DNA from: an uncultured Alphaproteobacteria bacterium
GTDB taxonomy: Bacteria; Pseudomonadota; Alphaproteobacteria; UBA11222
Length of the DNA: 64,000 bases
Direction: 5' to 3'
NCBI GenBank assembly: GCA_947085295.1
Contig: CAMTVX010000044.1
Coordinates: 3,269-67,268 of the forward strand
Shown here: positions 4,784 to 27,679 of the stretch, in pieces
How the letters are laid out: each line of letters begins with the position of its first letter
How positions within the stretch are numbered: position 1 is the stretch's first letter
The notes under the pieces: generated by a model
The model's database searches: none
What the model was told of the DNA's origin: nothing
The model's input: only the letters and a program-made list of their open reading frames with translations
Made by a program: the position numbers and the translations under genes

Positions 4784-4876
4784 GAATCAAAACCTGTTTT
4801 GCCGTGAACGATTCACGCGGGATTATCCGTAAAATACTGTCTGCGCCGCAACAAGTCCACCCGCGCAATATATCCG

Positions 4877-7800
4877 CTACACTGCGGGGGATGATTGGCC
4901 AGAATGGTTACCAGACGGTAAATTTGTTCCGCCCGCAGCTTTTGCCGGTCTTAACAGGATGGTCAGGCACAGAATATAGAACATCAGAACAAGGCGCGGC
5001 TGATCGAACGTGCTTACCGTCATCCCCGTTATCAGAAAGCCTGTCAGGGACGCCAGCAGCACCGCCGCAAGCCTGTCTCCCGCTGCAATCTGACGCGCCA
5101 GCGCCGCAAGTGTAAGCGCCAATAAGGCCCCCACCGCCAGCAATCCCAGCCACCCCTGATCGATCAACAGGCCCACGGCCAGATTTTTTGTGTGCCAGAA
5201 CAAATGTGCGTCTGACGTCCAGAACCAGTGATCGGAAAGCCGGTCAAACTCGCCATTCGCAACGAGATTGATTTCATTTTCTTTCGTAATACTGATTGCG
5301 TCGATATCAACGCCATGCAGGGGCGCGTTATTAACCCAAAACGATAATCTGGTTGGGCGGGGAAAAACCAGGCCAGAGACAGACCCGGCATACCCAATTT
5401 CACCGGTCTTTATTATCCCCCTGTAAGTTTGCCACCCCTCCCCATTCTCCTGAACCTGAAATATAGCATAGGTGCAATTATACGAGCTAATCAGCCATTT
5501 ATCACATAATGCAACTGTCAGGGAGGCGTTTGGCTCGGATGTGCGAAGTCTGACGCTCACTTGATAGGTGTTATCCGCATCGATGTGGATTGCCTGCCCC
5601 ATATACTGGGGCAGGCCGGACCACATCCGCATGAAACCATCATCCCCGTCACGGATAAAATCTGTGCGGGATGACCGCAGCTCAATTGTCCTGCTTTCTT
5701 GGCTAAGTCGTGGAAAACTGCCAAGGCCCATGCCTAAAAATTTTGTGGCAAGGGTATCGTCGCGCATGCTCAATGCGGCGCGCCAATGATTATACCGGGT
5801 TTCAGCGTCCGGCATGGTCCCCTCAAATCTTTCTCCCATATAGGTCCGGGAAAGCATGGGCAGGCCCACCATCGAAATCAGAACAACAGCACCTGATCCC
5901 AAAGCGACGGTAATAAATCCACGACGCCAGCCCGGGCGGCTCGCCAACAGCCCCAGCATGCCTACGCCAAAAGCAATCACTACCGCGATGAGGGGGCCGC
6001 GAGAGGCCGTGGCCATCAAAGTGTAGAATGATAGTAGCCCCATGCCTATGGTAACCGGCAATAGCGCCCACCAGCGGCGATCAAGCAATAACATAGCCAG
6101 CAGCGGCATGGTTGTCGCCAGCCATACATCGATGGGACCATCTCCGGTATGCAAGCTGGAAAATGTTGCAGCGATCCGGTGGTCAGAATTCCATTCAAAC
6201 AATCCCGCAAAAATCCAGTGTTCGTACACCCCAACCACGCTGACACCAAAAAGGCCCAGCAAAAGACCCCGCAACAACAGGTGCGTGGCGTCGCTGTCCT
6301 GTGCGATGGCGCGCCTTAGCGGGTTGAACAGCAGCAGCGCCCACACAAACCCCTTGCCGACCCGCAAGCTGTTATAGGGGCTAAAATAGTCAGCAAATGA
6401 ATTGGGCGTTATGGGCGGCGGCGGCCAAAGCTGTAACAGTGTGCTGAGCAGGTATGACACGGCCAGAAGCGTCAAAACCAGTTTCAGGTTTCTCGAAAGC
6501 GGCGGCAGCGGCTCTGCGCCGTTTTCACGCAGCGCAAGAACGCCCGCTGTTAACAGAACAAGGGCGTCAAATTCATCAAAGAAAAACCGGCCTGACCAGG
6601 GCGCAAGATCAAAGACCGGCAACATTGCAGGTACTATAATCAGCCAGAGTCCCGGCCGACGCCACAGGAAAATGGCGTACAGTGTAAAAGCCGCCGCTAT
6701 AGGCAGGCGCAGGACCGGAAAATCCACCACGAACCAGATAGTGATCGCCAGTAAAGACAATACGTAGGGAATCCGCGCGCGCCGCTGCGTCACAAAATGC
6801 ATTGCAGACTGAGCGTTGATTTTAGCGAAAGGCCTGTCTTGCGGCGCAGCTTCTACATTGCTTTCCGGTATTGACAAATCTGAGCCTAGCCGGACCGCCC
6901 ACTCACAGATGCGCTGCGTCAACGTCACCGCCGCGACGGCTATCAGGATATTGGTAAGATCTGGCCGCAGTCCCGTAGTGATGAGGCCCCCTGCTTCTAT
7001 TATGCCTGCAAATATGATTGCCCAAAATGCGCTATATATCAGGGGCCGTCTTTCTCCCGGCGCATTGCCATTAAGTGACTGGATAGCCCAGATGAAAACA
7101 CCCAACGGCGCATAGCTGACAGCAATGCTCATCAGGCTGGAAAAGGCTTCTTGTTCAGTCGTGAAATAATAGTAATAGAAAGGCATCCAGTGCATGGATG
7201 CGAGTACGTCTTCGATTTTGCCTTGCCCCGCGAAACCGGCATGCCACCCCCGCAAAACCGGCAGTATCGCCAGATAGAGTGGCGCAGCAAGCCAGATACC
7301 GGCCTTCAGCCAGGGGGTGAGGCGTAGCATGATCCTGGGTAGCAAATCTGTAATCTGGTGACCAAGCGCTGCGCCAAGCATCGCAACAGCAAAACTGCTG
7401 GCTTCCACGCGCCCCGAATACTGAAGCCATTGCAGCGCTTCGATCCCGCAGGTAAGCGCAAAGGCCGCCAGAACCGCCGAGGAAACACTGCGATTCCAGA
7501 TCAACCTAATCGCCATACCCAGCGGGAGTATGAGCGCAATTTGCAAAATCAGCGACGCCAGGCCGCGGATGCCGAATAAATTCTCCGGCGCCCATACGAA
7601 CGCCTTCGGGTCGGCCAACCGCGTTGCAATTTCATCCGCACTGACCAGAAAATCAAACGGGAACAGCGCAATAAAAATGTACCCCAGCAGATAAAGTCCA
7701 AGCGCTGCGGTTAATGTTTTGGGACCCCCGGACAGGGCATTGCGTATCGCTGTTACAATCTGCCTGCCCCACAACGCCCAGCCAAGGATACCGATACCGG

Positions 7801-9595
7801 TGCCCACAATTTCCGCAACCATATCATTGAGCGAGTAAGTGCGCGGCGCGGCCCAAACCTGTAAAAACTCAATGCAAACCGCCAGACCAATACCAACGAA
7901 CGCTGCGAAGATGGCCCCGCTCAGCCCCAGTCGGCTGGTGGCGCCATAGGCGAAAAATCCGATTGGCACATAAAGAATGAGATTGGCTACCAAATCGGCA
8001 CGGTTACGAAGGCCCAGGCCATACCATTTGAGATAGGAAAAATTCCCGAACATGTAACCAGCCGGCGCATCGCGGTATTCGAAGGGAAGCAGACTGCCAT
8101 ACAGGACAAATATTGCGGACAGACATGCTAGCATGGCCAACGCGCCGTATGGAATCGGCGCTGGCCGCTGCGTCGCAAAATTCATTACTGTGTGCGCGTT
8201 GCGTTTAGTTAAAGGTCTGTCTTGCGGCGCAGCTTCTAGATTGCTATCAGATATTGGACTTTCCAATAATAGCACATCTGGCCCCACCCGGGCCGCCCAC
8301 TCGCAGATGCGCTGCGTCAACGTCACCGCCGCGACGGCTATCAGGATATTAGTAAGGTCTGGCCGCAGTCCCGTAGTGATGAGGCCCCCTGCTTCTATTA
8401 TGCCTGCAAATATGATTGCCAAAAATGCGCTATATATCAGGGGCGGCCTTTCTTCCGGGGCTTTGCCATTAAAGATCCGGATCGCCCATATGAAAATGCC
8501 CAAAGGGGCATAGCTGATGGCAAGACTCAACAAGCTGGAAAAGGCATGTGGTACAGTGATGAAGTAGTAATAGTGGAAAGGCATCCAATGCATGGATGCG
8601 AGCACGTCTTCGATTTTGCTTTGGCCGGCGAAACCGGCATGCCACCCGCGCAAAACAGGCAGTATCGCCAGATAGAGCGGCGCAGCAAGCCAGATACCCG
8701 CTTTCAACCAGGGTGCAAGGCGCAGCATGATCTTCGGTAGCAAATCTGTAATCTGATGACCGAGCGCCGCGCCAAGCATCGCAACAGCAAAACTGCTGGC
8801 TTCAACGCGCCCTGAATACTGAAGCCATTGCAGCGCTTCGATCCCGCTGGTGAGCACAAAGGCCGCCAGGACAGCGGAGGCAACACCACGATTCCAGACA
8901 AGCTTAATCGCCATGCCCAATGGCATCATGAGCGCAATTTTCAAAATTAGGGACGCCAGGCCGTGGATCTCGAATAAATTCTCCGGCACCCATGCGAATG
9001 CATTCGGGTCGGCCAGCCGCATTGCGACCTCATCCGCACTAACCAGAAAATCGAACGGGAACAGCGCAATGAAACTGTAAACCAGCAGGTATAAACCAAG
9101 CCCCGCAGTCAATGTTTTGGGGCCACCGGACAGGGTGTTCTGCACCGCGCTTACGATCAGCCTGCCCCACAGCCCCCAGCCAAGGATACCGGCACCGGCG
9201 CCTATGATGTTTGCAACGATATCATTTAGAGAAGCCGTGCGAGGCGCGGCCCATATCTGCAAAAATTCAATACAGATAGCCAGGCTGGCGCCAAGTAACG
9301 CCGCCAAGATTGCCCCGCCTGACTTCTGGCGGCTCGTAGCGCCAAAGGCGAAAAATCCGATTGGCACATAAAGAATGAGATTGGTTACCCAATCGACTTG
9401 GTTATAATTTTCAGGGTTCGTCCAATTGAGATAGGAGAAATTCCCGAACGTGTACCCCGGCGGCGCATCGCGGTATTCAAAAGGAAGCAGGCTGCCATAT
9501 AGGACAAACAGTGCTGACAGGCATGCCAGCGTGGCAAGTATACCGTATGGAATCGATCGATTCTCTGACACGGCGCCCCCTGGATCAACACGCAT
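4877..9595 (-). CDS. Large polytopic membrane protein: tandemly duplicated VanZ-like region plus O-antigen ligase/Wzy_C-like region with a soluble beta-rich insert
   Basis: VanZ-like motifs (NLILYVPIGF...IEFLQ...SLNDIVAN) occur twice in near-identical ~460-aa units. C-terminal half has ASRGP, RYNHWRAALSM..LGMGLGSFP and HTKNL..LLIDQGWLG, which are O-antigen-ligase-like motifs. Confidence 0.7.
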   Translation of the reverse strand: MRVDPGGAVSENRSIPYGILATLACLSALFVLYGSLLPFEYRDAPPGYTFGNFSYLNWTNPENYNQVDWVTNLILYVPIGFFAFGATSRQKSGGAILAALLGASLAICIEFLQIWAAPRTASLNDIVANIIGAGAGILGWGLWGRLIVSAVQNTLSGGPKTLTAGLGLYLLVYSFIALFPFDFLVSADEVAMRLADPNAFAWVPENLFEIHGLASLILKIALMMPLGMAIKLVWNRGVASAVLAAFVLTSGIEALQWLQYSGRVEASSFAVAMLGAALGHQITDLLPKIMLRLAPWLKAGIWLAAPLYLAILPVLRGWHAGFAGQSKIEDVLASMHWMPFHYYYFITVPHAFSSLLSLAISYAPLGIFIWAIRIFNGKAPEERPPLIYSAFLAIIFAGIIEAGGLITTGLRPDLTNILIAVAAVTLTQRICEWAARVGPDVLLLESPISDSNLEAAPQDRPLTKRNAHTVMNFATQRPAPIPYGALAMLACLSAIFVLYGSLLPFEYRDAPAGYMFGNFSYLKWYGLGLRNRADLVANLILYVPIGFFAYGATSRLGLSGAIFAAFVGIGLAVCIEFLQVWAAPRTYSLNDMVAEIVGTGIGILGWALWGRQIVTAIRNALSGGPKTLTAALGLYLLGYIFIALFPFDFLVSADEIATRLADPKAFVWAPENLFGIRGLASLILQIALILPLGMAIRLIWNRSVSSAVLAAFALTCGIEALQWLQYSGRVEASSFAVAMLGAALGHQITDLLPRIMLRLTPWLKAGIWLAAPLYLAILPVLRGWHAGFAGQGKIEDVLASMHWMPFYYYYFTTEQEAFSSLMSIAVSYAPLGVFIWAIQSLNGNAPGERRPLIYSAFWAIIFAGIIEAGGLITTGLRPDLTNILIAVAAVTLTQRICEWAVRLGSDLSIPESNVEAAPQDRPFAKINAQSAMHFVTQRRARIPYVLSLLAITIWFVVDFPVLRLPIAAAFTLYAIFLWRRPGLWLIIVPAMLPVFDLAPWSGRFFFDEFDALVLLTAGVLALRENGAEPLPPLSRNLKLVLTLLAVSYLLSTLLQLWPPPPITPNSFADYFSPYNSLRVGKGFVWALLLFNPLRRAIAQDSDATHLLLRGLLLGLFGVSVVGVYEHWIFAGLFEWNSDHRIAATFSSLHTGDGPIDVWLATTMPLLAMLLLDRRWWALLPVTIGMGLLSFYTLMATASRGPLIAVVIAFGVGMLGLLASRPGWRRGFITVALGSGAVVLISMVGLPMLSRTYMGERFEGTMPDAETRYNHWRAALSMRDDTLATKFLGMGLGSFPRLSQESRTIELRSSRTDFIRDGDDGFMRMWSGLPQYMGQAIHIDADNTYQVSVRLRTSEPNASLTVALCDKWLISSYNCTYAIFQVQENGEGWQTYRGIIKTGEIGYAGSVSGLVFPRPTRLSFWVNNAPLHGVDIDAISITKENEINLVANGEFDRLSDHWFWTSDAHLFWHTKNLAVGLLIDQGWLGLLAVGALLALTLAALARQIAAGDRLAAVLLASLTGFLITGMTVSTFDQPRLVLMFYILCLTILLRPAKAAGGTNLPSGNHSGQSSPAV
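4888..4933 (-). repeat. Relic copy of the rlmH 3' end (attR-like); 46-bp imperfect direct repeat of 9695-9740
   Basis: GGGATGATTGGCCAGAATGGTTACCAGACGGTAAATTTGTTCCGCC vs GGGATGATTGGCCAGAATGCTTACCGCACGGTAAATTTGTTCCGCC, 43/46 identical. In the rlmH frame it reads AEQIYRLVTILANHP vs AEQIYRAVSILANHP. Confidence 0.93.
6775..9555 (-). repeat. Intragenic tandem duplication, two units of ~1.39 kb (about 6775-8157 and 8158-9555)
   Basis: Anchor CCGTATGGAATCG at 9543 and 8145 (offset 1398); CGTAGGGAATC at 6763 vs CGTATGGAATC at 8146 (offset 1383). Long stretches are nearly identical at DNA level, e.g. 7141-7450 vs 8540-8850. Confidence 0.95.
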
Positions 9596-9679
9596 TCAGA
9601 ACTACCTGTGATTATTGCAAAGGCCGAAAAACAACGAGCTGTAACAATTTACGGGCGCACCAGCCATCATTTATTCGCC

Positions 9680-10180
9680 TCACGCACGATGATAGGGATG
9701 ATTGGCCAGAATGCTTACCGCACGGTAAATTTGTTCCGCCAGCATCATGCGCACCAGCATATGCGGCCAGGTCATTGCCCCCAGCGATAGTTGCATATGC
9801 GCGCGGGCCGTTACCTGATCGCTTAACCCGTCCGCGCCCCCGATGACGAATACAAGATTGCGGCCGCCCTGATCCTTGTGTTGCCCCAGCCATTCTGCGA
9901 ATTTCTCACTGGATAGCGCGCGGCCCCGGCCGTCCAGCGCCACCAGCGTTGCACCTTCCGGCACCTGGGCCAGCAGCAGTTCGCCCTCACGCACCTTGCG
10001 CTGGGTGGCATCGGTCTGGGCGCTGCGCCTGCTGCGGTCTTCGACCTCGCGCAGCACCATCGGGCCAAACCCAAGGCGGGCGCCCATCAATTCTGCATTT
10101 TTCAGATAGCTGTTGGCAGCGGCCGTTTCATCGGCGGCGGCTTTCTGCCCCCGGCCAACAGCCGCAATCGTGATGCGCAT
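9680..10180 (-). CDS. rlmH: 23S rRNA pseudouridine-1915 N3-methyltransferase
   Basis: LDGRGRALSSEKFA, FVIGGADGL, LSLGAMTWPHMLVRMMLAEQIYRA..ILANHPYHR signature; follows rsfS. Confidence 0.95.
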   Translation of the reverse strand: MRITIAAVGRGQKAAADETAAANSYLKNAELMGARLGFGPMVLREVEDRSRRSAQTDATQRKVREGELLLAQVPEGATLVALDGRGRALSSEKFAEWLGQHKDQGGRNLVFVIGGADGLSDQVTARAHMQLSLGAMTWPHMLVRMMLAEQIYRAVSILANHPYHRA

Positions 10181-10188
10181 GGATGATT

Positions 10189-10599
10189 CTAGACGGCGCG
10201 CAGGCCGAACCCATTTGCCGGCTCAATATGCGATGGCATGGTCACCGACCATAATTTTTCGAGATTATAAAACTCCCGCACTTCCGGCCGGAAGACGTGA
10301 ATGATCACGTCCACCGCATCGACGACAACCCAGTCACCCTGACGCAGGCCCTCGACGCGGCAATTGTCGCCATAAACCTGTTTGATTTTTTCCGCTACAT
10401 GCCCGGCAATCGTTCCGACATGGCGCGAAGATGTACCACTGGCGATAACCAGATAATCGGCAATGCTGGATTTTCCTTCCAGCTCAATAGAAACAATATC
10501 AACGGCTTTATCATCGTCCATTGAATTTAGCACTAGCCGCATAAGCTCCTCCGGATTGGGATGGGCTGTACGGTGTGCGACGGCGCTATCTTGGGTCAG
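10189..10599 (-). CDS. rsfS: Ribosome silencing factor (Iojap)
   Basis: DDDKAVDIVSIEL, IADYLVIASGTSSRHV, WVVVDAVDVIIHVFRPEVREFYNLEKLW. Frame is open to a CTG at 10599 preceded by AGAGGA; the ORF track starts at ATG 10542. Confidence 0.93.
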   Translation of the reverse strand: MTQDSAVAHRTAHPNPEELMRLVLNSMDDDKAVDIVSIELEGKSSIADYLVIASGTSSRHVGTIAGHVAEKIKQVYGDNCRVEGLRQGDWVVVDAVDVIIHVFRPEVREFYNLEKLWSVTMPSHIEPANGFGLRAV

Positions 10600-10686
10600 T
10601 GGGTTCCTCTGGGTTTGGTTAAGGATGTCTTACCCCCATAGAATAGGGATTACCGGGCGCATTTGCAAAATAATTACATGGTAAAC

Positions 10687-11277
10687 TCATTTTCGCCCCG
10701 CCCGGATGGCGGTGGAGCTGGCCGGGTGCAGGCGGCAGGGGAGGAAGATCCACGCCGGGGCGGGCTGGCTGGCCAGACGGGTGGCGGACGCCAGCGGCAA
10801 CCGGGCATCGGCGTAGCGCTGCGCCGCCTTGCCGTGCAGGGCCTTTATTCCGCTGCCTGGGCGGTCCAGAACGGCTATGGGCATCAGGCGCATGATCTGG
10901 CTCCAGGCCCGCCAGCGGGGCAATTGCACCAGATTATCGGCCCCCATCAGCCAGACAAACTGTACCCCCGGCCAGCGGCGTTGCAGGGCGGTCAGGGTGT
11001 CTATGGTGTAGGTGGTGCGCAAACGCTGTTCTACCGTGCTGACCACGATGCGAGGGTGGCCCGCTATTTTTTTTGCAGATTTTACGCGATCCTGCAGGCT
11101 GGCCATACCCGCCGCCGGTTTTAGCGGGTTTTGCGAGCTGACCAGCCACCAGACCCGGTCAAGCTGCAAACGTTTCAGGGCGATCAGGCTGATATGGCGA
11201 TGCCCGGCATGGGCCGGATTGAAGGATCCACCCAGCAGGCCAACCCGCATACCGGGATATAGAAGTTCACGGCTCAT
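10687..11277 (-). CDS. nadD: Nicotinate-nucleotide adenylyltransferase
   Basis: GLLGGSFNPAHAGH, TYTIDTL, FVWLMGADNL motifs. Confidence 0.95.
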   Translation of the reverse strand: MSRELLYPGMRVGLLGGSFNPAHAGHRHISLIALKRLQLDRVWWLVSSQNPLKPAAGMASLQDRVKSAKKIAGHPRIVVSTVEQRLRTTYTIDTLTALQRRWPGVQFVWLMGADNLVQLPRWRAWSQIMRLMPIAVLDRPGSGIKALHGKAAQRYADARLPLASATRLASQPAPAWIFLPCRLHPASSTAIRAGRK

Positions 11278-11327
11278 GGGAGTTAAAGCATCGTGCAGCC
11301 TGGTGACGCCGCCAATCCACCCACAAT

Positions 11328-11454
11328 GTCATCGCGAGCGAAGCGTGGCGATCCACCAGCCTTCGCAAGAAGGCTACGGCTGGCAAAGGAGCGCCAAACT
11401 CGGTCCTTACCGTGTGACTCTGGATTGCCACGGCGCTATGCGCCTCGCAATGAC
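11328..11454. repeat. Intergenic palindromic (REP/RPE-like) element with a nested second hairpin
   Basis: GTCATCGCGAG (11328) pairs with CTCGCAATGAC (11444-11454); CGTGGCGATCCA pairs with TGGATTGCCACG; internal CCAGCCTTCGCAAGAAGGCTACGGCTGG hairpin. Confidence 0.8.
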
Positions 11455-11492
11455 GCAGGAGAGGGCGCGATTTCGTCAATCTCTATCACCCA

Positions 11493-12842
11493 TTACGTCC
11501 GCGTCTGGCCGTTGCCGCGCACCACATATTTGTAGCTGGTCAATTGCGCCGCGCCCACCGGGCCGCGCGCATGCAGTTTGCTGGTGGAAATGCCGATCTC
11601 TGCCCCCATGCCGAATTCGCCGCCATCGGCGAACTGGGTTGAGGCATTGTGCATGACAATGGCGCTGTCGATCTGGGACAGGAAACGCTCGGCTGTCGGC
11701 CCATCATCGGTGATGATGGATTCGGTATGTTGCGATCCATAGCGCTGAATATGCGCGATGGCTTCATCCACGCCGTCCACGATGCGAACGGAAATGATGG
11801 CGTCGAGATATTCCGTCGTCCAGTCAGCCTCGGACACCGGTTTGACGCGCGCATCAAAAGCCTGCACATCTGGCCCGCCGCGCACTTCGCAGCCTGCGCC
11901 GATCAGATCGGCCACCAGCACCGGCAGATGGGTTACGGCACAGCGGCGATCCACCAGCAGGGTTTCCGCAGCACCGCAAATTCCGGTACGGCGCATTTTG
12001 GCATTGATCACAATTTTGCGCGCCATTTCCAGATCGGCCTTGCCATCCACATAGACATGCACAAGACCATCCAGATGCCCCATCACCGGCACGCGGGCGT
12101 CGCGCGTCACGCGCTCGGTCAGGCTGCGCCCGCCGCGCGGTACGATGACATCGATATATTGCGTCATGTTGCCCAGCATATAACCGACAGCGGCGCGATC
12201 AATGGTCGGCACCCGCTGCACCGCGCCTTCGGGAATCTTGGCGGCGTTCAGGCCTTCCAGAATACATTCATGAATGGCGCGGCTGGAATGATAGCTTTCC
12301 GACCCGCCGCGCAAAATCACCGCATTGCCCGCCCGCAGACACAGTGCAGCGGCATCCGCTGTCACATTGGGGCGGCTTTCATAAATGATGCCGATCACAC
12401 CCAGCGGCACGCTGACCCGCTCAATATGCAACCCATTGGGGCGATCCCATCCGGTCAGCACCTGACCCACCGGATTGGGCATGCCGGCAATTTCATCCAT
12501 ACTGCGCACCATTGCAGCAATGCGCGCATCATCCAGTTTCAGGCGGTCTAGCATGGAGGCGGGCAGGTTTGCGGCCTGTGCTGCGGCCATATCCTTGTCA
12601 TTGGCTTTCAGGATCAGATCGACATTGGCGCGCATCGATGCGGCGGCGCAGTACAATGCGGATTCCATTGCCTTGCCGTCACGATTGGCCAAATGGGCTG
12701 CCGCTTCGCGCGCGCGGCGGCCGATTTCATCCATGATGGTTGCGATTTCGATAGCGGAAAGTTCGCGCGCGGGTTTGGCGGTTGCGCCATCGGGCTTACG
12801 CTGCGGTTCCCGGCGAGCGTCGTTAATGTCGGTGATGGTCAT
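11493..12842 (-). CDS. proA: Gamma-glutamyl phosphate reductase
   Basis: [63 protein letters not shown] motifs. Confidence 0.97.
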
Positions 12843-15030: not shown

Positions 15031-15047
15031 CGATATACTGCTCTAAA

Positions 15048-15080
15048 ATAAAAAAGGGAGATGGCGATCCATCTCCCTTT
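15048..15080 (-). terminator. Rho-independent terminator between rpmA and obgE
   Basis: Minus-strand RNA AAAGGGAGAUGG-AUCG-CCAUCUCCCUUU followed by UUUAUUUU. Confidence 0.8.
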
Positions 15081-15116
15081 CAGATCGCCACCATCTGGAT
15101 GGCGGTGCATCCAGTA

Positions 15117-15386
15117 TTATTCAGCCGCTACCTGCATCGGGACAACCGATATGCACGGACGTCCGCCCTTGCTGTTGCAAAACAATACATGGCCTTCGGT
15201 CACTGCAAAAATCGTATGGTCGCGGCCCATGCCGACATTTTCACCCGGGTGCCATTGTGTGCCGCGCTGGCGCACAATGATGTTGCCGGAGATGACATGT
15301 TCGCCACCGAATTTTTTTACGCCCAGTCTACGGCCTGCACTGTCACGACCATTGCGTGAGGAACCGCCTGCTTTTTTATGTGCCAT
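15117..15386 (-). CDS. rpmA: 50S ribosomal protein L27
   Basis: [29 protein letters not shown]. Confidence 0.99.
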
Positions 15387-18180: not shown

Positions 18181-18320
18181 GTGAGGCCTCTCCCTGCTTT
18201 TGTTTCTAGAGTTATAGTTTTGTTGGCCCGAATATGCCCGTATTGCCGGAATTTCGCAAGGCTTTGGCTTGGTAAAAGCGCATGCTAGGCTTGCCCCAAA
18301 CCAAAACGGGAGAAAACAGC

Positions 18321-19811: not shown

Positions 19812-19829
19812 CACCCCCTTTCACAGCCG

Positions 19830-20606
19830 CTATTCATGCCTGAATTTCGCCGGGCGTTTTTCCACGAACGCTGCCATGCCTTCGCTTTGGTCTTTTGTGG
19901 CGAATTGCGAATGGAACAAACGCCGCTCAAATCGCACCCCTTCGCTTAAGCTCACCTCATAGGCGCGGTTGATGGATTCCTTGGTCATCATGGCGATGGG
20001 CAGGGATTTCTCGGCGATGACGGCGGCGACTTTCAATGCCTCGTTTACCAGATCGGCGGCCGGAATAATGCGGCTGACCAGCCCGGCGCGTTCAGCCTCG
20101 ACCGCATCCATCATGCGCCCGGTCAGGCACATTTCCATGGCTTTGGATTTGCCGACAAAGCGGGTCAGGCGTTGCGTGCCGCCTGCGCCCGGCATGACGC
20201 CCAGATTGATTTCCGGCTGGCCGAATTTGGCGGTGTCGGCGGCCAGAATGAAATCACACATCATCGCCAGCTCACAGCCGCCGCCCAGCGCAAAGCCCGC
20301 AACAGCGGCAATCACCGGCTTGCGGGCGCGCGATGCGCGTTCCCAATTGGATGTGATGAAATCTTCCATGAACACGCCCATATAGGTTTTGGGCTGCATT
20401 TCCTTGATGTCCGCACCCGCAGCAAAGGCGCGCTCGCTGCCGGTGATGACCATGCAGCCAATACCGTTATCGGCCTCGAACGCGTCAATCGCCTGGGTCA
20501 GTTCATCCATCAGCGCCTTGCACAGCGCGTTCAGCGCGGCCGGCCGGTTCAGCCGGATCAGCCCGACGCGGCCATGGGTTTCGACGATGATATTTTCATA
20601 TGCCAT
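19830..20606 (-). CDS. Enoyl-CoA hydratase
   Basis: [43 protein letters not shown]; canonical neighbour of mutM. Confidence 0.95.
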
Positions 20607-20649
20607 GCGGATGCTCCTGTTTTGTTTAATGCTGTATAGCACGAAACTT

Positions 20650-20701
20650 TCAGCGCTGACAGCCGGGGCAGTATGAGATGAAATTCATCCAATTGCAGAA
20701 T
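20650..20701 (-). repeat. Relic copy of the mutM 3' end (attR-like), counterpart of 21379-21429
   Basis: Minus strand TTC ATC TCA TAC TGC CCC GGC TGT CAG CGC TGA = [10 protein letters not shown] vs mut[11 protein letters not shown]. 21/31 nt identical over 20650-20680 vs 21379-21409, plus ATTGCAGAAT (20692) vs ATTGCACAAT (21420) at 9/10. Confidence 0.8.
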
Positions 20702-21086
20702 CACGGATCACATTTTCCCGCAAAAAACCAATCAACCCCGTTTCATCCAATGTGCCCGCTGCAAGGTTCAGTATTGCCTGTGCGGCGTTTTCTTCGCTGG
20801 CGGTAAAGCGCAAGCCGTTCAGTTCCAAAAACAAAACGCCCACCACAAAGCCGGTGCGTTTATTGCCATCGACAAAGGGGTGATTGCGCACAATGCCCGC
20901 AATATAGGCGGCGGCCAGATCAATCCTGTCGGCGGTTTCAGCGTAAGCAAATATCTGCTGTGGCCGGGCGAGTGCGGATTTCAGCAATCCCCCATCGCGC
21001 AATCCCACCGCGCCGCCAAACACTGCGAGCAGCCGGTCATGCAACGCCAGCGCGTCGCATTCCTCAATCCAGACCGGCGCGCTCAT
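20685..21086 (-). CDS. Death-on-curing (Doc/Fic) toxin
   Basis: G.RDGGLLKSALARP, HPFVDGNKRTG Doc motif. Confidence 0.92.
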   Translation of the reverse strand: MSAPVWIEECDALALHDRLLAVFGGAVGLRDGGLLKSALARPQQIFAYAETADRIDLAAAYIAGIVRNHPFVDGNKRTGFVVGVLFLELNGLRFTASEENAAQAILNLAAGTLDETGLIGFLRENVIRDSAIG

Positions 21087-21310
21087 TTGGCCAGGGTATG
21101 CAGCGTGTTGCGATAGCGATCAATAATGTCTTCGGCCTTTGCCATTTTCTGCTCGAACGCCGGATCATAGGGGGTCAGCCGGTAGGTTCCATCCGCCGCC
21201 TCGATCAGGAACAGCGGCGCACCGTCTTTGGTGTGCAGCCGGTTGATAACTTCCCTGGGCAGCACGACGCCCAGCGAGTTGCCGAATTTGCGAACCTTGA
21301 GCTCAATCAT
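21083..21310 (-). CDS. AbrB/MazE-family antitoxin
   Basis: LKVRKFGNSLGVVLPREVI swapped-hairpin signature; ATGA overlap with doc. Confidence 0.9.
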   Translation of the reverse strand: MIELKVRKFGNSLGVVLPREVINRLHTKDGAPLFLIEAADGTYRLTPYDPAFEQKMAKAEDIIDRYRNTLHTLAK

Positions 21311-21325
21311 GACGCCTCTCCCATT

Positions 21326-21349
21326 ACGTTATCACCAATGTAATAACAT
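21326..21349. promoter_or_regulatory. Palindromic operator upstream of the antitoxin (autoregulation)
   Basis: ACGTTATCAC-CAAT-GTAATAACAT, 8 of 10 arm positions complementary, directly upstream of the AbrB RBS. Confidence 0.55.
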
Positions 21350-21378
21350 TCGGGGTGGAATGCAAGAGAAACTGGCCC

Positions 21379-22191
21379 CTATCGCTGACAGGTGGCGCAG
21401 AAGAAGCTGGAGCGGCCGGATTGCACAATGCGGGTGATGGGTTTTTGGCAAGCCTTGCAGGGCTGCCCTTCGCGACCGTAAACATCAAAACCGTGCTGGA
21501 AATACCCCAGACTGCCATCGGCGGCGGCGTAATCGCGCAGGGTGGAGCCGCCCGCCGCAATGGCGTCCGTCAGCACTGCCCGAATGGCCTGCGATAATTT
21601 TTCCGCCCGTGCACCCTTTAGCGTACCGGCCAGACGGCGCGGCGACAGCCCGGCGCGAAACAGCGCCTCGCACACATAAATATTGCCAAGCCCGGCGATC
21701 AGGCGCTGATCGAGCAGCGCCGCCTTGAGAGGTGTGCGCCGCCCGGCAAACTTGTCCGCCAGATGCGCGCCGCTAAGTTCATTGCCCAATGGTTCAATGC
21801 CCAGACCAGACAGAAAACGGTTTTGCGCAAGCGCGTCCGGCGCGATCAGTTCCATAAACCCAAACCGACGCGGATCACTATACACCAGCCGCACACCGTC
21901 GCTAAGGTGAAGCACCACATGGTCATGCAGTTTGGGTTCAGGATCAAAACTATAGCGCCCGGTCATGCCCAGGTGTGAGAGCAGGACGCCGCCCCCCTCC
22001 AGCGCGATCAGCAGATATTTCGCCCGCCGGTCCACCCCCACAATGGTCTGCCCGGTGAGCGCGTGCGCAAAGCCATCGCCAAACGCAAACCGCAAATCCG
22101 GGCGGTTAAGATCAACCCGCAATATCCGCCGCCCGGTCAGGCGCGGCGCTAATCCCCGGCGGATGGTTTCAACTTCAGGTAATTCAGGCAT
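21379..22191 (-). CDS. mutM: Formamidopyrimidine-DNA glycosylase
   Basis: [41 protein letters not shown]-terminal zinc finger. Confidence 0.98.
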
Positions 22192-22274
22192 GGGCTGTTG
22201 TAGCGCAAGCTTGACGGTTGAGCTATAGTCTGGACAGATCGAAGGTCGGAGAAGTTTTAAGGGCTAAGTCTACA

Positions 22275-22487
22275 ATGGCGAAGAAACAAAAATTCTCGGC
22301 AAGCGTCTGGCGCGAAGGCAAATGGCATATCGCCCAGTGCCTCGAGGTCGATGTCGTCAGTCAGGGGACGAGTGAGTCGGCTGCGCTGAAAAACCTGGCT
22401 GACGCGCTGGCGCTGCACTTTAGTCCGCCGATGGCCACCCGGGCGCCGAGAGTGCTGCCGATAGAGGTTAAGGCGCGTGCCGCTTAA
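22275..22487 (+). CDS. HicB-family antitoxin (short, no DNA-binding domain)
   Basis: VWREGKWHIAQCLEVDVVSQGTSESAALKNLADALALH HicB-like fold; overlaps the hicA start. Confidence 0.8.
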   Translation: MAKKQKFSASVWREGKWHIAQCLEVDVVSQGTSESAALKNLADALALHFSPPMATRAPRVLPIEVKARAA

Positions 22488-22698
22488 AAGCCTGCCGTTC
22501 CGGGAAATCCGGCGAAGGTTATTAGCAGCGGGATGGACCGAGGCCGGACAGACCGGCAGTCACGTAAAATTCGCCCGGCGTGTTGGGAATGGTTTACGCA
22601 CCACCATTGTACCCAAACATCGTGAAGTAGCGCTTGGCACACTACGTGGCATTCTGCGGCAGGCCTGAATCAGCCCCGACGATTTTGAACGGCTGTAA
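22477..22698 (+). pseudogene. HicA-family toxin with an in-frame TGA at 22666-22668
   Basis: GWTEAGQTGSHVKF...VPKHREVALGTLRGILRQA*ISPDDFERL*; the frame continues in HicA-like fashion to TAA 22696-22698. Confidence 0.78.
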
Positions 22699-22736
22699 AA
22701 AAGCTGGAATAACAGCAGGGCCGTCTCCCTCTCGTA

Positions 22737-24365
22737 TCAGCGCAACTCAAACCCCTCATAGCCCTTCGCCGCCACGTCCGCCAATATTTCGCGGTATGCC
22801 ACATTGCCGCCCGCCCAGATCTGGAAGGTGCGGGCTTTGCCCGGCACGTTGGATCCGGTGTACCAGCTATCGGTTTTGGCGAGTAATGTGGCGTCGGCTA
22901 CTTCGGCGACATGCTTGACCCAATCATCTTCCGCGGTCTTGCTGGGCTGGGTGCGGGCCAATTGATTGTCGCGCATATGGCGGATGAGATCGGTTACCCA
23001 TTCGACATTCAGTTCCGCGCAACGCGGAATATTGCACAGCGCCGAATTGCCCTGCGGGCCGACCAGCGTGAACAGATTGGGAAAGCCCGCACTTTGCAGG
23101 CCCAGATAGCTGCGTGGGCCGTTGGCCCATTTGTCTTTCAGTTTTACGCCGTTCTCGCCGCTAATATCGATGCGCGTAATGCCGCCGGTTACCGCGTCAA
23201 ACCCGGTGGCGTAGATGATCATGTCGAGTTCATATTCGTGATCGCTGGTCTTGATGCCCGTTGGCGTGATGCGCGCAATCGGGGTTTCGCTGATATCCAC
23301 GAGGGTCACATTGGGCTGATTGTACACCTCGTAATATCTGGTCTCCAGCGGCACGCGGCGGGTGCCGAAGCCATGATCTTTCGGAATAAGTTTTTCTGCG
23401 ATTTTGGGATCTCTGACGCGGCTACGGATTTTGCGGGCGACAAAGTCAGAGATCAGATCATTGGCTTTCTGGTTGGTGAGAATATCCCCAAACGCGCCCA
23501 GCCACAGGCTGAACCCAGGCCCCGGATACAGCTTTTCAAACAGCGCCTCGCGTTCTTCAGCCGATACTTCAAGCGCGGATCGCGGGTCGGAATCATGCAC
23601 CATGCTGGCGAAAGAGGTTTTGCATTTATTGAACATTTCCGGATAGCTGGCCTTGATTTTGGCCTGTTCTTGCGCGCTGATAGGGCCGTTGCCGAGTGGC
23701 GAGCACCAGTTGGGCCGACGCTGAAACACGCTCAGATGCCCGGCGGTTTTGGCGACTTCCTGAATCACCTGCACGCCGGTGGCGCCGGTGCCGATAATGC
23801 CCACACGTTTGCCCGCATAGCCCACATCCGCGCCACCCCATCCTTTAGGGTCGGCTGGCCAGTTGAAGGTGTGAAACGCGGTTCCCTTGAAGGTTTCCAT
23901 GCCGGGAATTTGGGGCATCATCGGCGCAGATAGCGGCCCCAGCGCCGTGATCAGATAACGTGCGCGGGCGCGCTCACCGGTGTCGGCTTCAACCTCCCAG
24001 CAATTGGCGGCGGCGTCAAAACTTGCAGCGCGCACCCGCGTGTTAAACTGGATGTCCTTACGCAGATCGAATTTATCCGCAACATGATTGAGATAACGCA
24101 GGGTTTCCGGCTGCGGCGAATAATGCTCGCTCCAGTCCCATTCCTGCAAGAGTTCCTTCGAAAACGAATAGGCATAGGATTCGCTCTCAGAATCAAAACG
24201 GCATCCCGGATAACGGTTCCAGAACCAGGTGCCACCCACGCCGCTGGCCGCCTCGATCACCCGCACCGACAGCCCCAATTCGCGCAGCCGGTAAAGCTGA
24301 TACAGGCCGGTAACGCCTGCGCCGATGATGATGGCGTCATAATGTTGGGCTGCGGTGCTGGACAT
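22737..24365 (-). CDS. Baeyer-Villiger monooxygenase (type I flavoprotein)
   Basis: GAGVTG and GTGATG Rossmann motifs, GGTWFWNRYPGCRFD, fingerprint FKGTAFHTFNWP (FxGxxxHxxxWP), ATGFDA. Confidence 0.93.
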   Translation of the reverse strand: MSSTAAQHYDAIIIGAGVTGLYQLYRLRELGLSVRVIEAASGVGGTWFWNRYPGCRFDSESESYAYSFSKELLQEWDWSEHYSPQPETLRYLNHVADKFDLRKDIQFNTRVRAASFDAAANCWEVEADTGERARARYLITALGPLSAPMMPQIPGMETFKGTAFHTFNWPADPKGWGGADVGYAGKRVGIIGTGATGVQVIQEVAKTAGHLSVFQRRPNWCSPLGNGPISAQEQAKIKASYPEMFNKCKTSFASMVHDSDPRSALEVSAEEREALFEKLYPGPGFSLWLGAFGDILTNQKANDLISDFVARKIRSRVRDPKIAEKLIPKDHGFGTRRVPLETRYYEVYNQPNVTLVDISETPIARITPTGIKTSDHEYELDMIIYATGFDAVTGGITRIDISGENGVKLKDKWANGPRSYLGLQSAGFPNLFTLVGPQGNSALCNIPRCAELNVEWVTDLIRHMRDNQLARTQPSKTAEDDWVKHVAEVADATLLAKTDSWYTGSNVPGKARTFQIWAGGNVAYREILADVAAKGYEGFELR

Positions 24366-24435
24366 GAAATTTCCTCTTTGGGGTGGAATGAACTGAGCAG
24401 TTCAATCTAAAGCGATCTTGCGCTATGGTCCAGAC

Positions 24436-25167
24436 ATGACATCAACCACACATTTTGGCTTCAGAGAAGTTCCCGAGGGCGACAAGCAGCGCCTGGTGGG
24501 CGGCGTGTTTGATGCAGTTGCGTCGCGTTATGATCTGATGAATGACGTGCTGTCGGGGGGTATGCACCGGCTGTGGAAGGCCGCGATGGTCGATTGGTTG
24601 CGCCCGCGCGCGGGAATGCGGTTGATTGATGTGGCGGGCGGCACCGGCGATATTGCGGGCCGGGTGCTGGAGCGGGTGCATAGACAGGCCGATATTACCG
24701 TGTGCGATATTAATGTCAGTATGCTGACGCAAGGGCGCAAACGCGCGCCCGATGCTCCCATTCACTGGCTGGCGGGGGATGCGGAGGCGCTACCCTGCCC
24801 GGATCGGTCGTTTGACGCCTATACGATTGCCTTTGGCATTCGCAATGTCACGCATATCGACGCGGCGCTGCGTGAGGCGCATCGGGTGCTGAAACCGGGC
24901 GGGCGGTTTTTGTGCCTCGAATTTTCTTCCGTAAACATGCCGGGGCTGGACACGCTGTATGATTTATATTCGTTCAAACTGATGCCGTTACTGGGCGGGT
25001 TAGTCGGCGGCAACCGGGAGGCGTATCAATATCTGGCGGAAAGCATCCGGCAATTTCCCGATCAGCAGAAATTTGCCGGCATGATTGCCGATGCGGGGTT
25101 TTCACAGGTGGCGTTCCGCAATCAATCGGCGGGCATTGCCGCCATTCATTCCGGCTGGCGGATATAA
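24436..25167 (+). CDS. ubiE: Ubiquinone/menaquinone C-methyltransferase
   Basis: [54 protein letters not shown]. Confidence 0.96.
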
Positions 25168-25175
25168 GCGCGCAG

Positions 25176-26774
25176 ATGTTTGATCCCATTGCCGCATTTG
25201 ACAACAGTCTACGCCTGATCCGGGCGGCGCGTGTGCTGGCGCGCCATGACGCGCTGTTTGCATTTACAGATATGCCTGCGCCACCGCTGGCGATCCGCAT
25301 TGCGTACGGGCTGGCCAGATTGCGCATGCCGTGGGAGCCGCGTATTCCAGCGATTGACAGCGCGCGCCCCGGAGAGCGTCTTGCCGATGCGCTACAGCAA
25401 CTGGGTCCAAGCTATATCAAGCTGGGGCAGATGCTGGCGACGCGCCCGGATGTCATCGGCGATCAGTTGGCGCGCGATCTGATGCGCCTGCAGGACCGGC
25501 TGCCGCCCTTTGCACAGACGCTGGCAGAGGCCATGATTGCGCAGGAACTGGGCGGCGCGCCTGGCGATCATTATGTTGATTTCGGCCCGGCCATTGCAGC
25601 GGCATCTATCGCGCAGGTGCATCAGGCGGGCGTGGCGGATAAGACGGGTACGGACGATACACAAACCATCAAACAGGTGGCGGTAAAAATTCTGCGTCCC
25701 GGTGTGGAAGATGCCTTTGCCCGCGATCTGGAAAGTTTTTTGTGGGCAGCGCAGTTGATCGAACGCACCCAGCCTGGATTGCACCGTTTGCGGCTGACTG
25801 AAGTGGTGCGCATTCTGGCCGAAAGCGTCGCGCTTGAAATGGATTTACGCTACGAGGCGGCGGCGGCATCCGAGCTGGCCGAAAACATGTCGGCGGAAAT
25901 AGCGGCCGGTGAATTTCGCGTACCCGCCATTGACTGGCGGCGCACGGCGCGCCGGGTGCTGACGCTGGAATGGATGGATGGCATTTCCATTGGTGATAAT
26001 GCAGCGCTGGTTGCAGCGGGCCATGATCTGAAAGCCTTGGCCGCGCGCGTGATCACCCTGTTCCTGAAACAGGCCATGCGCGACGGATTTTTTCACGCAG
26101 ACATGCATCAGGGCAATCTGTTTGTGGCGCGGGATGGCGCCATTATTGCGGTTGATTTCGGCATTATGGGGCGGCTCGATCCGCGCAGCCGCCGCTATCT
26201 GGCGGAAATTCTGTATGGTTTGGTGCGCCGGGATTATCGCCGGGTGGCCGAACTGCATTTCGAAGCTGGTTTTGTTACGCGCGACAAATCGGTGGATGCG
26301 TTTGCCCAGGCGCTGCGCTCGGTGGGCGAGCCGATCTTTGGCCTGCGCGCCAGTGAAATTTCCATGAGCCGCCTGCTGGCGCAACTGTTCCGCGTGACCG
26401 AAACTTTTGCCATGCGCACCCAGCCGCAATTGCTGCTGCTGCAAAAAACCATGGTCGTGGTGGAAGGCGTGGCGCGCGGCTTAAACCCGGATGTGGATTT
26501 CTGGGAAGTTTCAGAACCCGTGATCAAGGAATGGATCAGCGATCATCTGGGCCCAGAAGCGCGCCTGATGGAAGCAGCCGAAGGCGCGGCCGCGCTGGCC
26601 CGCGCCCTGCCAAACCTGCCACATCTGATCGAACGCGCCGAACGCGCCGCCGCCCGGTTTTACGGCGAAGAAACCCGCGATGAAGATCACCCGCCCGCAA
26701 ACAACCGCTTCGCCAATACCGGCTGGTGGGTTGCAGGCGCGGCGATCATAGCATTGTTGTTAAGCTGGGTTTAA
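25176..26774 (+). CDS. ubiB: Ubiquinone biosynthesis kinase-like protein
   Basis: LGPSYIKLGQMLATRPD, AAASIAQVH, VAVKILRPG, FFHADMHQGN, DFGIMG. Confidence 0.96.
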   Translation: MFDPIAAFDNSLRLIRAARVLARHDALFAFTDMPAPPLAIRIAYGLARLRMPWEPRIPAIDSARPGERLADALQQLGPSYIKLGQMLATRPDVIGDQLARDLMRLQDRLPPFAQTLAEAMIAQELGGAPGDHYVDFGPAIAAASIAQVHQAGVADKTGTDDTQTIKQVAVKILRPGVEDAFARDLESFLWAAQLIERTQPGLHRLRLTEVVRILAESVALEMDLRYEAAAASELAENMSAEIAAGEFRVPAIDWRRTARRVLTLEWMDGISIGDNAALVAAGHDLKALAARVITLFLKQAMRDGFFHADMHQGNLFVARDGAIIAVDFGIMGRLDPRSRRYLAEILYGLVRRDYRRVAELHFEAGFVTRDKSVDAFAQALRSVGEPIFGLRASEISMSRLLAQLFRVTETFAMRTQPQLLLLQKTMVVVEGVARGLNPDVDFWEVSEPVIKEWISDHLGPEARLMEAAEGAAALARALPNLPHLIERAERAAARFYGEETRDEDHPPANNRFANTGWWVAGAAIIALLLSWV

Positions 26775-26818
26775 GGTGATATCGCTAATGCTGATATTCT
26801 AAAACAGGGAGTGCGACA

Positions 26819-27037
26819 ATGGCCGAGCGTAAATCTGCGCTTAAACGGGCTCCGGATCGTCCTGAACTTCAGCGGTTGTTAGCGCAAGCCAGGACAGCGG
26901 TTATCACCGACGAGATGCTTCAGGAACAGCGGGTAAGCTTTGTGTATGGCAATGCGCCTGTCGGATCAGGGACTACCAGGGAATCAGCGCGGCGGGCAAC
27001 CAAGAGCATTCTTCTAAATCCACCTGAAATGACATAA
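26819..27037 (+). CDS. Small protein upstream of Fic; possible antitoxin
   Basis: 72 aa with GGAG RBS; contains EQRVSFVYGN. Function inferred from position only. Confidence 0.5.
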   Translation: MAERKSALKRAPDRPELQRLLAQARTAVITDEMLQEQRVSFVYGNAPVGSGTTRESARRATKSILLNPPEMT

Positions 27038-27073
27038 CGGAAGGGAGAAGCGGTAAAACACCGGGTTCGTTCC

Positions 27074-27679
27074 ATGCTGGTTTTAGAAGAAGAATATCCA
27101 GAATTATATCATCGTATTCAGGATCAAAACCTGATCCGTCAGTACGATTTGATGACCAATTGCATTGAAATCGGCATCAAGCAGGGGCCAATAGCCTTCG
27201 ACAAATCCATGTTGTGGGCGCTCAATCATGTCGCTGTTGCAAATATTTCAGCATTCGGCGGAAGATTCCGCCAGGAACCCATATATGTTGGTGACCACAA
27301 ACCACCGCATTTCAGGGAAGTGGCGGACTGGATGGACCGATTCATCTCTACTGTCCATGAAAACTGGTACATTTGGTCCCCAACGGAATTAGCGGCGTAC
27401 GGATTATGGCGCCTGAACTGAATTCATCCGTTTGTTGAGGGCAATGGCAGAACAGCCCGCGCGACTTGCTATTATCTTCTCTGTGTCCGCAATGGTTCGT
27501 TATTGCCCGGCCGCAAAATTCTTCCTGAGCGGATTAGAGAAAACCGTGCTGGATATGAGCGGGCGCTGCATGCCGCTGATGAAGCATGGGAAAGTGGCCA
27601 TCTCGACTTCACAGATATGGAAGATTATCTGGCTGTCCTGGTGCAGGCGCAGCTTGATGATGATGGCATGCCGCATTAA
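27074..27679 (+). pseudogene. Fic-domain protein interrupted by an in-frame TGA at 27419-27421
   Basis: ...YGLWRLN*IHPFVEGNGRTARA... continues in frame to TAA 27677-27679; the stop sits at the usual Trp position before the Fic motif HPFxxGNGR. Confidence 0.88.

Follow-up and report, generated by a model that had tools for sequence, protein, structure and literature searches.

Displaced gene ends beside integrase-free inserts at rlmH and mutM in an uncultured alphaproteobacterium

Cis-mobilizable elements (CIMEs) are decayed integrative and conjugative elements (ICEs) or integrative and mobilizable elements (IMEs) with attL and attR retained at the target gene's 3' end (PMC5704250). Where hotspots of horizontal gene transfer have no integrase, homologous recombination in their flanking core genes keeps them going, and the double-crossover model accepted for them explains turnover only (PMC5635113); the first entry of genes into such hotspots is poorly documented. 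For the uptake of foreign DNA, the term homology-facilitated illegitimate recombination is in use (PMC6382021, PMC8116780). Here we consider a stretch of 64,000 nucleotides from an uncultured alphaproteobacterium (‘the window’; contig CAMTVX010000044.1), in which accessory genes lie directly behind the core genes rlmH and mutM and are followed by a displaced copy, or relic, of the end of that core gene. The original prediction, made from the letters of the window, had seen three such blocks (the third behind ubiB) as cassettes of a common system, each consisting of a new gene end and its cargo.

The window (GC content 56.8%) belongs to a poorly sampled lineage: among GTDB contigs, taken at one genome per species, the best match to its Obg protein is 89% identical (locus L001, from a Lake Baikal metagenome-assembled genome, or MAG) and the next 71%, and no exact database record was found for its RlmH. 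The metagenome runs that hold window sequence are of groundwater type. Domains in the window proteins were called with Pfam, and loci of relatives are cited below by L numbers.

The inserts behind rlmH and mutM

Both blocks bring a homologous gene end of their own, a spacer and a minimal cargo, and in both the end of the host gene has been displaced downstream as a non-coding relic; there was one insertion at each gene, inside its last 60–75 nt (Table 1). The two cases have the same architecture, the relic abutting the 3' end of the cargo. Neither holds an integrase or transfer genes: the content is the VanZ/ligase gene at rlmH and the AbrB and Doc pair at mutM. The GC content of the cassettes is 50–55%, against 58–62% in neighbouring core genes.

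Table 1. Features of the window at the rlmH, mutM and ubiB sites
Feature	Position	Strand	Remarks
M23 peptidase gene, ancestral downstream neighbour of rlmH	3554–4783	-	Pfam Peptidase_M23; directly behind rlmH in L086 and L169
Ancestral rlmH-to-M23 intergenic DNA	4784–4885	-	Aligns to intergenic DNA of empty L086 and L169
Relic of ancestral rlmH 3' end	4886–4940	-	Reads AEQIYRLVTILANHP in the rlmH frame
VanZ/O-antigen-ligase-like (Wzy_C) membrane protein, 1572 aa	4877–9595	-	Pfam VanZ, E = 1e-35
Insert-borne spacer, 84 nt, GC 45%	9596–9679	-	Conserved in occupied loci; missing from empty L086 and L169
Current, insert-borne last ~75 nt of rlmH (‘new end’)	9680–9754	-	Diagnostic GTAAGC and CGTGCGTGA in all occupied loci
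rlmH (23S rRNA pseudouridine-1915 N3-methyltransferase), 166 aa, intact	9680–10180	-	Pfam SPOUT_MTase over residues 1–164, E = 1e-45
Enoyl-CoA hydratase gene, ancestral neighbour of mutM	19830–20642	-	Pfam ECH_1; directly behind mutM in L001 and L174
Relic, ancestral mutM end (C-P-G-C-Q-R-TGA plus 3 nt)	20648–20671	-	24/24 identical to L001 mutM end
Doc (Fic/DOC family) toxin, 133 aa	20685–21086	-	Pfam Fic, E = 6e-20
AbrB/MazE-type antitoxin, 75 aa	21083–21310	-	Pfam MazE_antitoxin
Insert-borne last 7 codons of mutM (C-A-T-C-Q-R-TAG)	21379–21399	-	6 of 21 nt differ from empty-site/relic end
mutM/fpg, 270 aa, intact	21379–22191	-	Pfam Fapy_DNA_glyco, H2TH, zf-FPG_IleRS
ubiB, end without detectable replacement	25176–26774	+	Aligns through stop with L087 and empty-site contig end ...LLLSWL-stop
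Fic cassette, a plain intergenic insertion	26775–27724	+	Relatives' contigs jump from ubiB to 27725
72-aa open reading frame in Fic cassette	26819–27037	+	
Fic gene broken by TGA at 27419–27421	27074–27679	+	Pfam Fic matches the part behind the stop

At rlmH the repeat is conspicuous in the window itself. Positions 4888–4937 and 9695–9744 are identical in 46 of 50 nt (offset 4807), and when the last 60 nt of each of the 63 gene calls were compared with the gene's own 10 kb downstream, with shuffles as the control, rlmH was the sole gene above the shuffles (score 75, null maximum 29; z = 26.7), so that the repeat claimed for it in the original prediction is borne out. The repeats proposed for mutM and ubiB lay within noise in this screen and were not the top match even for their own genes, so that by window-only controls just one of the three relics is significant.

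The gene order is rlmH, 84 nt, a VanZ/VanZ/Wzy_C-like gene (the Wzy_C match in Pfam, at 30.8 bits, being slightly below the cut-off), 93 nt and the M23 peptidase gene. The C-terminus of the window's RlmH (...AVSILANHPYHRA, then the stop) matches that of relatives: homologues at 76–90% identity all end ...AEQIYR(A/S)V(S/T)ILANHPYHRx at the stop codon. Besides the window, L081, L082/L083, L167 and L168 are occupied, with rlmH, a VanZ/Wzy_C gene and the M23 gene in this order; L086 and L169/L170 are empty, with M23 directly behind rlmH and a single gene end, rather than both copies. The rlmH end at empty sites reads ...GTAACCATTCTGGCCAATCATCCCTATCA(T/C)CGC.GTTAA. Empty-site loci and relics have GTAACC where the current end of the occupied loci has GTAAGC, and the intergenic DNA behind the empty-site gene (GGTGGACTTGT...CGTGAATCG..CACGGCAAAACAGGTTTTGA) is found in the window behind the relic. 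Relic and downstream DNA together are identical to the empty sites in 139 of 185 columns (L086) and 134 of 173 (L169). The current end of rlmH aligns to the empty sites up to the stop codon only, the 84-nt spacer being without counterpart there, and shares with the other occupied loci a common end type (GTAAGC...CATCG(T/C)GCGTGA) and a common spacer. Since the relic and what follows it match the empty sites, and the current end and spacer match the occupied loci, the relic is the ancestral end of rlmH, and the insert brought the current one.

Duplication took in a segment of about 75 nt that begins at ATGATGCTGGCGG. In L082 the relic is complete through the stop codon (TEQIYLWETIVANHPYHRR, then the stop); the window, L081, L167 and L168 have lost by deletion about 17–19 nt, which coded for YHRx and the stop. 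The cargo ends 0–22 nt from the relic. In the original prediction the last cargo gene of every block overlapped the relic and read it in a shifted frame; in the window, L167 and L168 the VanZ/ligase gene does run on into relic sequence, whereas in L081 and L082 it ends ahead of the relic, and the overlap is secondary. In L081 (4197–4481) the spacer between rlmH and the cargo is about 200 nt longer and contains a long GC-rich hairpin repeat (CATTGCGAGGAGCGTAGCGACGCGGCAATC ... GATCGCCGCGCTTCGCTCGCGATGAC); this extra DNA resembles a small repeat element.

The cargo genes of the relatives encode proteins of 1092–1107 aa with a single VanZ block. Only the window copy has an extra one, owing to a 1398-nt tandem duplication (about 6763–8157 and 8146–9555) that adds a second block of 466 aa, the two being 82–86% identical. 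Outside the clade, the nearest homologues (from Gamma- and Betaproteobacteria) are at most 38% identical, with no rlmH linkage. In a tree built from RsfS, M23, CtpA and a deacetylase and rooted with Parvibaculum-like loci, the five occupied lineages form one clade, ((window,(L167,L168)),(L081,L082)), with an ultrafast bootstrap (UFboot) of 81, and the empty-site pair (L086,L169) is its sister group (UFboot 96). As the occupied loci are monophyletic, a single old insertion, in the ancestor of the clade, would suffice. The cargo proteins of the very close sisters L167 (6001–9321) and L168 (2546–5869) are merely 78% identical, residues ~600–1000 being hypervariable and both ends near-identical, a pattern that looks like the allelic mosaicism typical of surface-polysaccharide genes.

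At mutM the relic was correctly placed by the original prediction, and nothing in the window alone would establish it: the relic peptide (FFCATCQR-stop in the current gene, SYCPGCQR-stop in the relic) ranked 8th of 63 genes, with a stop-anchored family-wise p of 0.13, and the DNA score was at noise level. It is the comparison with the empty-site locus L001, and not the window statistics, that makes it real. Empty sites, with the hydratase gene directly behind mutM, are found in L001 (MutM 87% identical) and L174 (86%). In L001, mutM ends ...TTCTTCTGCCCCGGCTGTCAGCGCTGA AATATTCATGCTATA; the 24-mer CTGCCCCGGCTGTCAGCGCTGAAA at this end occurs once in the window, at the relic (chance expectation 4.5e-10), and the window's current mutM end is TGCGCCACCTGTCAGCGATAG instead. 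At both genes, then, the end present at empty sites (L086 and L169 for rlmH, L001 for mutM) matches the relic and not the current end, and the reading of each block as a new gene end with cargo, behind which the ancestral end survives, holds.

The toxin–antitoxin (TA) pair occupies this site in three lineages: the window, L171/L172/L173 (MutM 92%; L173 and L081 are the same MAG) and L177 (88%). All occupied loci have a TAG stop in mutM and a related spacer bearing a palindromic operator, and all have the relic ahead of the hydratase gene. In L177 the relic has decayed (CAGTACGCCGCCTGTCAGCACTGA), whereas the window and L171 have kept it intact. The new mutM end of L171 and L177 reads C-P-K-C-Q-R, with TGC and AGR codons and a TAG stop; the ancestral end is C-P-G-C-Q-R, with TGT and CGC codons and a TGA stop. 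From these differences in codons and stop, the new end is a foreign homologue and not a local duplicate; the insert brought at least 21 nt of gene end. The three carriers (window, L171 and L177) are ~80–90% identical in DNA, and the insert is old.

The antitoxin gene and the downstream Doc gene overlap by 4 nt, in the manner of a type II TA module of the Phd/AbrB-Doc type. Related modules occur on plasmids of Acetobacter, Komagataeibacter and Sulfitobacter (about 71% DNA identity; 70.8% for the first two genera), the plasmid homologues being annotated as death-on-curing TA systems. The plasmid modules compared contain no piece of mutM and differ in the Doc tail; indeed, the conserved core of Doc stops at FLRxNV (FLRENV in the window), and the tail beyond it varies across homologues. 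Cargo homologues elsewhere (distant VanZ/ligase genes and plasmid AbrB-Doc modules alike) therefore do not hold relic-like sequence as part of their own ends.

Does Doc, too, run into a relic? The Doc stop lies 13 nt short of the confirmed relic, so that here the predicted overlap could concern only a diverged and less certain part to the left. There, the window sequence ATCCGTGATTCTGCAAT is collinear with ACCCGCATTGTGCAAT of mutM (ACCCGC-ATTGTGCAAT), and the relic may possibly extend left to about 20706, for a length of ~60 nt. If this extension is real, the last 7 codons of Doc would be relic read in another frame.

Several observations concern the surroundings of this relic. The start of the hydratase gene is likely the ATG at 20606. 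From the 3' end of Doc through the relic to the hydratase start, the window matches L171 at 100% over a block of 150 nt (window 20590–20740), against ~89% in the flanks. Gene conversion in recent times would account for this, or else a functional constraint, for example a hydratase promoter. A consensus promoter was not found within the relic, and that the relic has been kept as a promoter is speculation. Directly upstream of mutM, several relatives have an MNT/HEPN-type nucleotidyltransferase TA pair (L171, 1497–2199; L174, 102–831), of which there are no remnants in the window (22192–22736) and no trace in L001 or L177.

The DNA behind ubiB and other gene-end breakpoints

The third block turned out differently. 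Behind ubiB come a 72-aa open reading frame, a Fic gene and coaBC, and the ubiB relic claimed for this block (17 of 23 nt identical) was rejected: it is noise in the controls, lies within the Fic coding sequence and is absent at the empty-site junction. A contig from metagenome runs X12 and X18 provides that junction, joining the ubiB stop plus 6 nt straight to window position 27725; the 30 letters ahead of the joint are ACGTTGCTGCTTAGCTGGCTTTAG GGAACA, that is, ...TLLLSWL-stop and the 6 nt. The loose contig end ACGTTGCTGCTTAGCTGGCTTTAGGGAACA adjoins 27725. Ahead of 27725 the window has no copy of the ubiB end and nothing resembling the empty-site letters. Because the empty-site contig joins the ubiB stop and 6 nt to 27725, the Fic cassette is an ordinary insertion just behind the ubiB stop, outside the gene-end phenomenon; there being no relic, the overlap predicted for Fic falls as well.

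The TGA that interrupts the Fic gene is strain-specific, relatives' contigs from four metagenome runs reading G at 27421, to give TGG (Trp) before IHPF. Recoding of TGA as Trp was considered and rejected, as rlmH and other genes stop at TGA and relatives have TGG there. The X12/X18 contig differs from the window (compared over 26739–28180) by 11 of 961 nt in the Fic cassette (98.9% identity) and by 36 of 481 nt in the adjacent coaBC (92.5%), with a break within ~30 nt of the right edge of the cassette; this suggests a recent cassette-sized transfer, or a chimeric contig. In L087 (UbiB 84%), the sole close metagenome locus, ubiB is followed at once by a different TA pair, HicA/HicB, encoded on the other strand (5644–6224), and the neighbour is different too. 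TA genes have thus landed behind ubiB repeatedly.

Altogether there are four variable sites free of mobility genes: nadD/rsfS, rlmH/M23 and mutM/ECH, each either occupied or empty, and the site behind ubiB, which holds Fic, HicAB or nothing. Between nadD and rsfS, some relatives patchily have an AbiLi-like ATPase with a 183-aa partner (L081, 1385–3145; L169, 718–2475; L086, 210–1970; L167, 3247–4311), the window being empty there (10543–10686). Where this cassette sits, nadD ends AKRNV-stop or AERSS-stop, against AGRK-stop elsewhere; the insert swapped the last 3–4 codons of nadD and left no relic.

In a wider proxy screen of 1,839 genes across all fetched loci, matches scoring at least 46 were found 9 times downstream on the same strand, 6 times upstream and once on the opposite strand. 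The rlmH clade itself supplies five of the nine downstream and three of the six upstream matches, and once it is removed there are too few independent events for enrichment to be claimed. Two further integrase-free cargo blocks with gene-end duplications nevertheless came to light in other Alphaproteobacteria. In a Parvibaculum MAG (L016, 4707–6891), an AlkB-like 2-oxoglutarate oxygenase gene is followed by anthrone-oxygenase-like and TetR genes and then by a relic of ~170 nt, the oxygenase's last ~55 codons including the stop codon. In Astrobacterium formosum (L006, 2560–7820), a GNAT gene is followed by ~5 kb of cargo (TetR, a major facilitator superfamily transporter, a cyclase and BKACE) between direct repeats of ~280 nt that start in the last 32 nt of the GNAT gene and extend into non-coding DNA. 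A tandem duplication is also on record: in L116 (8040–8750) the last ~100 nt of a gene for a 335-aa protein occur three times, ~300 nt apart, the first downstream copy having the same stop codon. Integrase-free insertions thus recur with breakpoints at gene ends, although the small numbers do not show enrichment.

Mobility, later spread and route of entry

That the blocks lack a recombinase, as the original prediction had it, is confirmed by the gene content of all three. Nothing points to the common system or the present mobility that it also proposed: both genuine inserts are old, and the rlmH and mutM repeat pairs share no core or inverted-repeat motif. Four metagenome runs contain window sequence, and in their contigs, which are fragmentary and uninformative on rare events, no repeat-to-repeat, excision or circle joint was seen; the contigs contain one weak 1405-nt skip, inside the tandem VanZ repeat. 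There is, then, no sign of a currently active, self-contained mobile system, and the cassettes are old inherited scars, fixed in their clades.

They seem not to have been left untouched since. Window and L171 are 64–100% identical per 50 nt, in a mosaic. This mosaic identity, the mosaic cargo of L167 and L168, the incongruence of local mutM trees with occupancy and the Fic cassette's 98.9% identity beside 92.5% in coaBC suggest that relatives later exchanged these cassettes through homologous recombination in flanking core genes, in keeping with what has been published on hotspots without integrases (PMC5635113).

How might the inserts have entered? The likeliest route is a one-sided homologous recombination dependent on RecA, of the homology-facilitated illegitimate type that was reportedly first described in Acinetobacter and pneumococcus. 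In the donor, be it a genome or a replicon, the cargo would already have stood behind the same gene. The left crossover would have fallen within the 3' part of the gene, and the right joint would have been illegitimate, linking, on the donor side, the extreme 3' end of the last cargo gene to a point on the host side 60–75 nt upstream of the gene's stop, with the result that the gene end was duplicated. Vertical inheritance would have followed, with shuffling among relatives through recombination in the flanking core genes. Three things favour such a one-sided entry. The 3' end of the cargo abuts the relic in both cases, the native tail of Doc having perhaps been cut off. The 3' part of mutM is unusually diverged, like a donor tract: over the last ~110–200 nt, identity is 0.73 against 0.84 for the rest (L001), and 0.76–0.84 against about 0.9 (L171), which fits a donor tract longer than the duplication. 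And the other cases have long repeats or none, unlike att sites; the relic-free AbiLi-like case at nadD looks like the outcome of an illegitimate joint placed within the gene's end. Taken as a whole, one-sided recombination followed by vertical inheritance, and not an active system, is the explanation that we rank first, tentatively and with less than full conviction.

Several points weigh against it. A donor arrangement, with the cargo behind the gene and no relic, was not found. At the mutM joint a single microhomology was seen, CTGC, whose placement is uncertain; the AGR codons and TAG stop of the new mutM end hint at a distant donor, which would be a poor RecA anchor. No foreign signal was found in residues 1–137 of RlmH, and the divergence of the mutM 3' part could reflect weaker constraint alone. 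In a local tree of mutM and ECH, occupied and empty loci are not cleanly split, so that at least one later loss or transfer is needed. Direct repeats of a target gene's end are, moreover, also the classic signature of integration by an integrase.

This last point leads to the chief alternative, that the inserts are decayed integrative elements (CIME-like, or ψSCC-like at rlmH). A tyrosine or serine recombinase would have integrated a circle with an attP that resembled the 3' end of the gene; attL and attR would be the two copies of today, and the integrase and the remainder would have been deleted later, with the selected or addictive cargo staying behind. Cargo between direct repeats of the target gene's 3' end, with the element's copy restoring the gene, is what is seen, so that this model accounts for the repeats just as well, and the loss of integration and transfer genes with attL and attR kept is what defines CIMEs (PMC5704250). 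The staphylococcal cassette chromosome (SCC) does enter at rlmH, and variants without ccr exist (PMC13739063, PMC4723332). TA modules are plausible last survivors, this one is related to plasmid-borne ones, and the new mutM end, with its foreign codon usage, suits an element-borne mimic. On the other hand, no integrase-bearing version was found at either site in the 7 rlmH and 6 mutM lineages, nor in about 80 other Alphaproteobacteria, screened by repeats only. Erosion would have had to halt exactly at the edge of the relic twice, with the cargo stop 0–22 nt away; the two repeat pairs have no core or inverted-repeat motif in common; and the 170–280-nt repeats of the other integrase-free cases, which include non-coding DNA, are unusual for att sites. 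We therefore regard decayed elements as a somewhat unlikely, though serious, contender.

A bolder proposal is that the cassettes perpetuate themselves without an integrase, the repeats looping the cargo out as a circle with one gene end, which then enters other genomes anew through one RecA crossover within the short terminal homology. The arrangement of gene end and cargo between repeats would fit, as would the patchy occupancy of mutM on the local tree and the further integrase-free gene-end duplications in other taxa; the relic-free Fic cassette, far more conserved than its flank in another lineage, means that cassette-sized transfer occurs in this group. But at rlmH one old event accounts for the insert throughout a monophyletic clade, the same cargo with the same gene end was never found in a distant taxon or on a plasmid, and the mutM copies, ~70% identical over 21 nt, offer too little for RecA to loop them out. 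With no excision or circle joint in the window-holding runs (contigs only), and with one of the three proposed members false, we consider this quite improbable. A wider idea, that a short copy of a core gene's 3' end acts, through such looping out and re-entry, as a portable, enzyme-free landing pad that seeds integrase-free hotspots and swaps C-termini as a by-product, seems to us improbable too; if it were true, the relics would be readable fossils of the first gene entry into hotspots. That the relics are chance similarity or local tandem duplication, with no foreign DNA involved, is highly improbable: the mutM and ubiB matches do lie within noise in shuffled and cross-gene controls, and gene-end tandem duplication exists in L116, but empty sites match the relics and refute this reading for rlmH and mutM, new ends and relics differ in synonymous codons and in the stop codon, and the cargo is of lower GC and missing from sister lineages, so that the reading is valid for ubiB only.

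Comparison with known systems

The scars at rlmH and mutM are of a broadly known kind, and have some value as fossil entry junctions. Both junctions are preserved at each gene and can be read against empty-site relatives, the template being a gene end of 60–75 nt plus cargo. The last zinc-finger CxxC of MutM and the HPYHR end of RlmH are examples of how a conserved C-terminus in a core protein can be a foreign replacement, which matters for gene-tree inference and for the annotation of ‘pseudo’ gene fragments. Were they ordinary decayed islands rather than products of the one-sided entry preferred above, their value would lie mainly in annotation.

Among described systems, CIMEs resemble the inserts in having direct repeats of the target gene's 3' end around the cargo (at rlmH and mutM, not at ubiB), no integration or transfer genes, and a gene kept by the element-side copy. 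They differ in that the two sites yielded neither a related intact element nor a cognate integrase, that the content is only one or two genes, that the repeats have diverged, and that the host is an uncultured alphaproteobacterial lineage whereas theirs are streptococci.

The alphaproteobacterial rlmH insertion site parallels that of staphylococcal SCC and ψSCC (PMC13739063, PMC4723332): the target is the same rlmH 3' end, the cargo is envelope-related and may be free of recombinase. The rlmH block, however, has no Ccr recombinase and a single cargo gene, belongs to a different phylum and goes back to an old, fixed event. Its repeat is the last ~75 nt of an alphaproteobacterial rlmH; that of SCC is roughly the last 15–20 nt of the staphylococcal gene.

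Homology-facilitated illegitimate recombination would have in common with the inserts one core-gene anchor and one illegitimate joint, small deletions or duplications at the joint and no element enzyme; it is known mainly from laboratory transformation assays, whereas here it would be read from fossil junctions. Finally, the integrase-free hotspots (PMC5635113) likewise hold TA, defence and envelope genes between core genes, with no mobility genes and with mosaic flanks. The model drawn up for them covers turnover and not first entry, whereas the relics behind rlmH and mutM keep the entry junctions.

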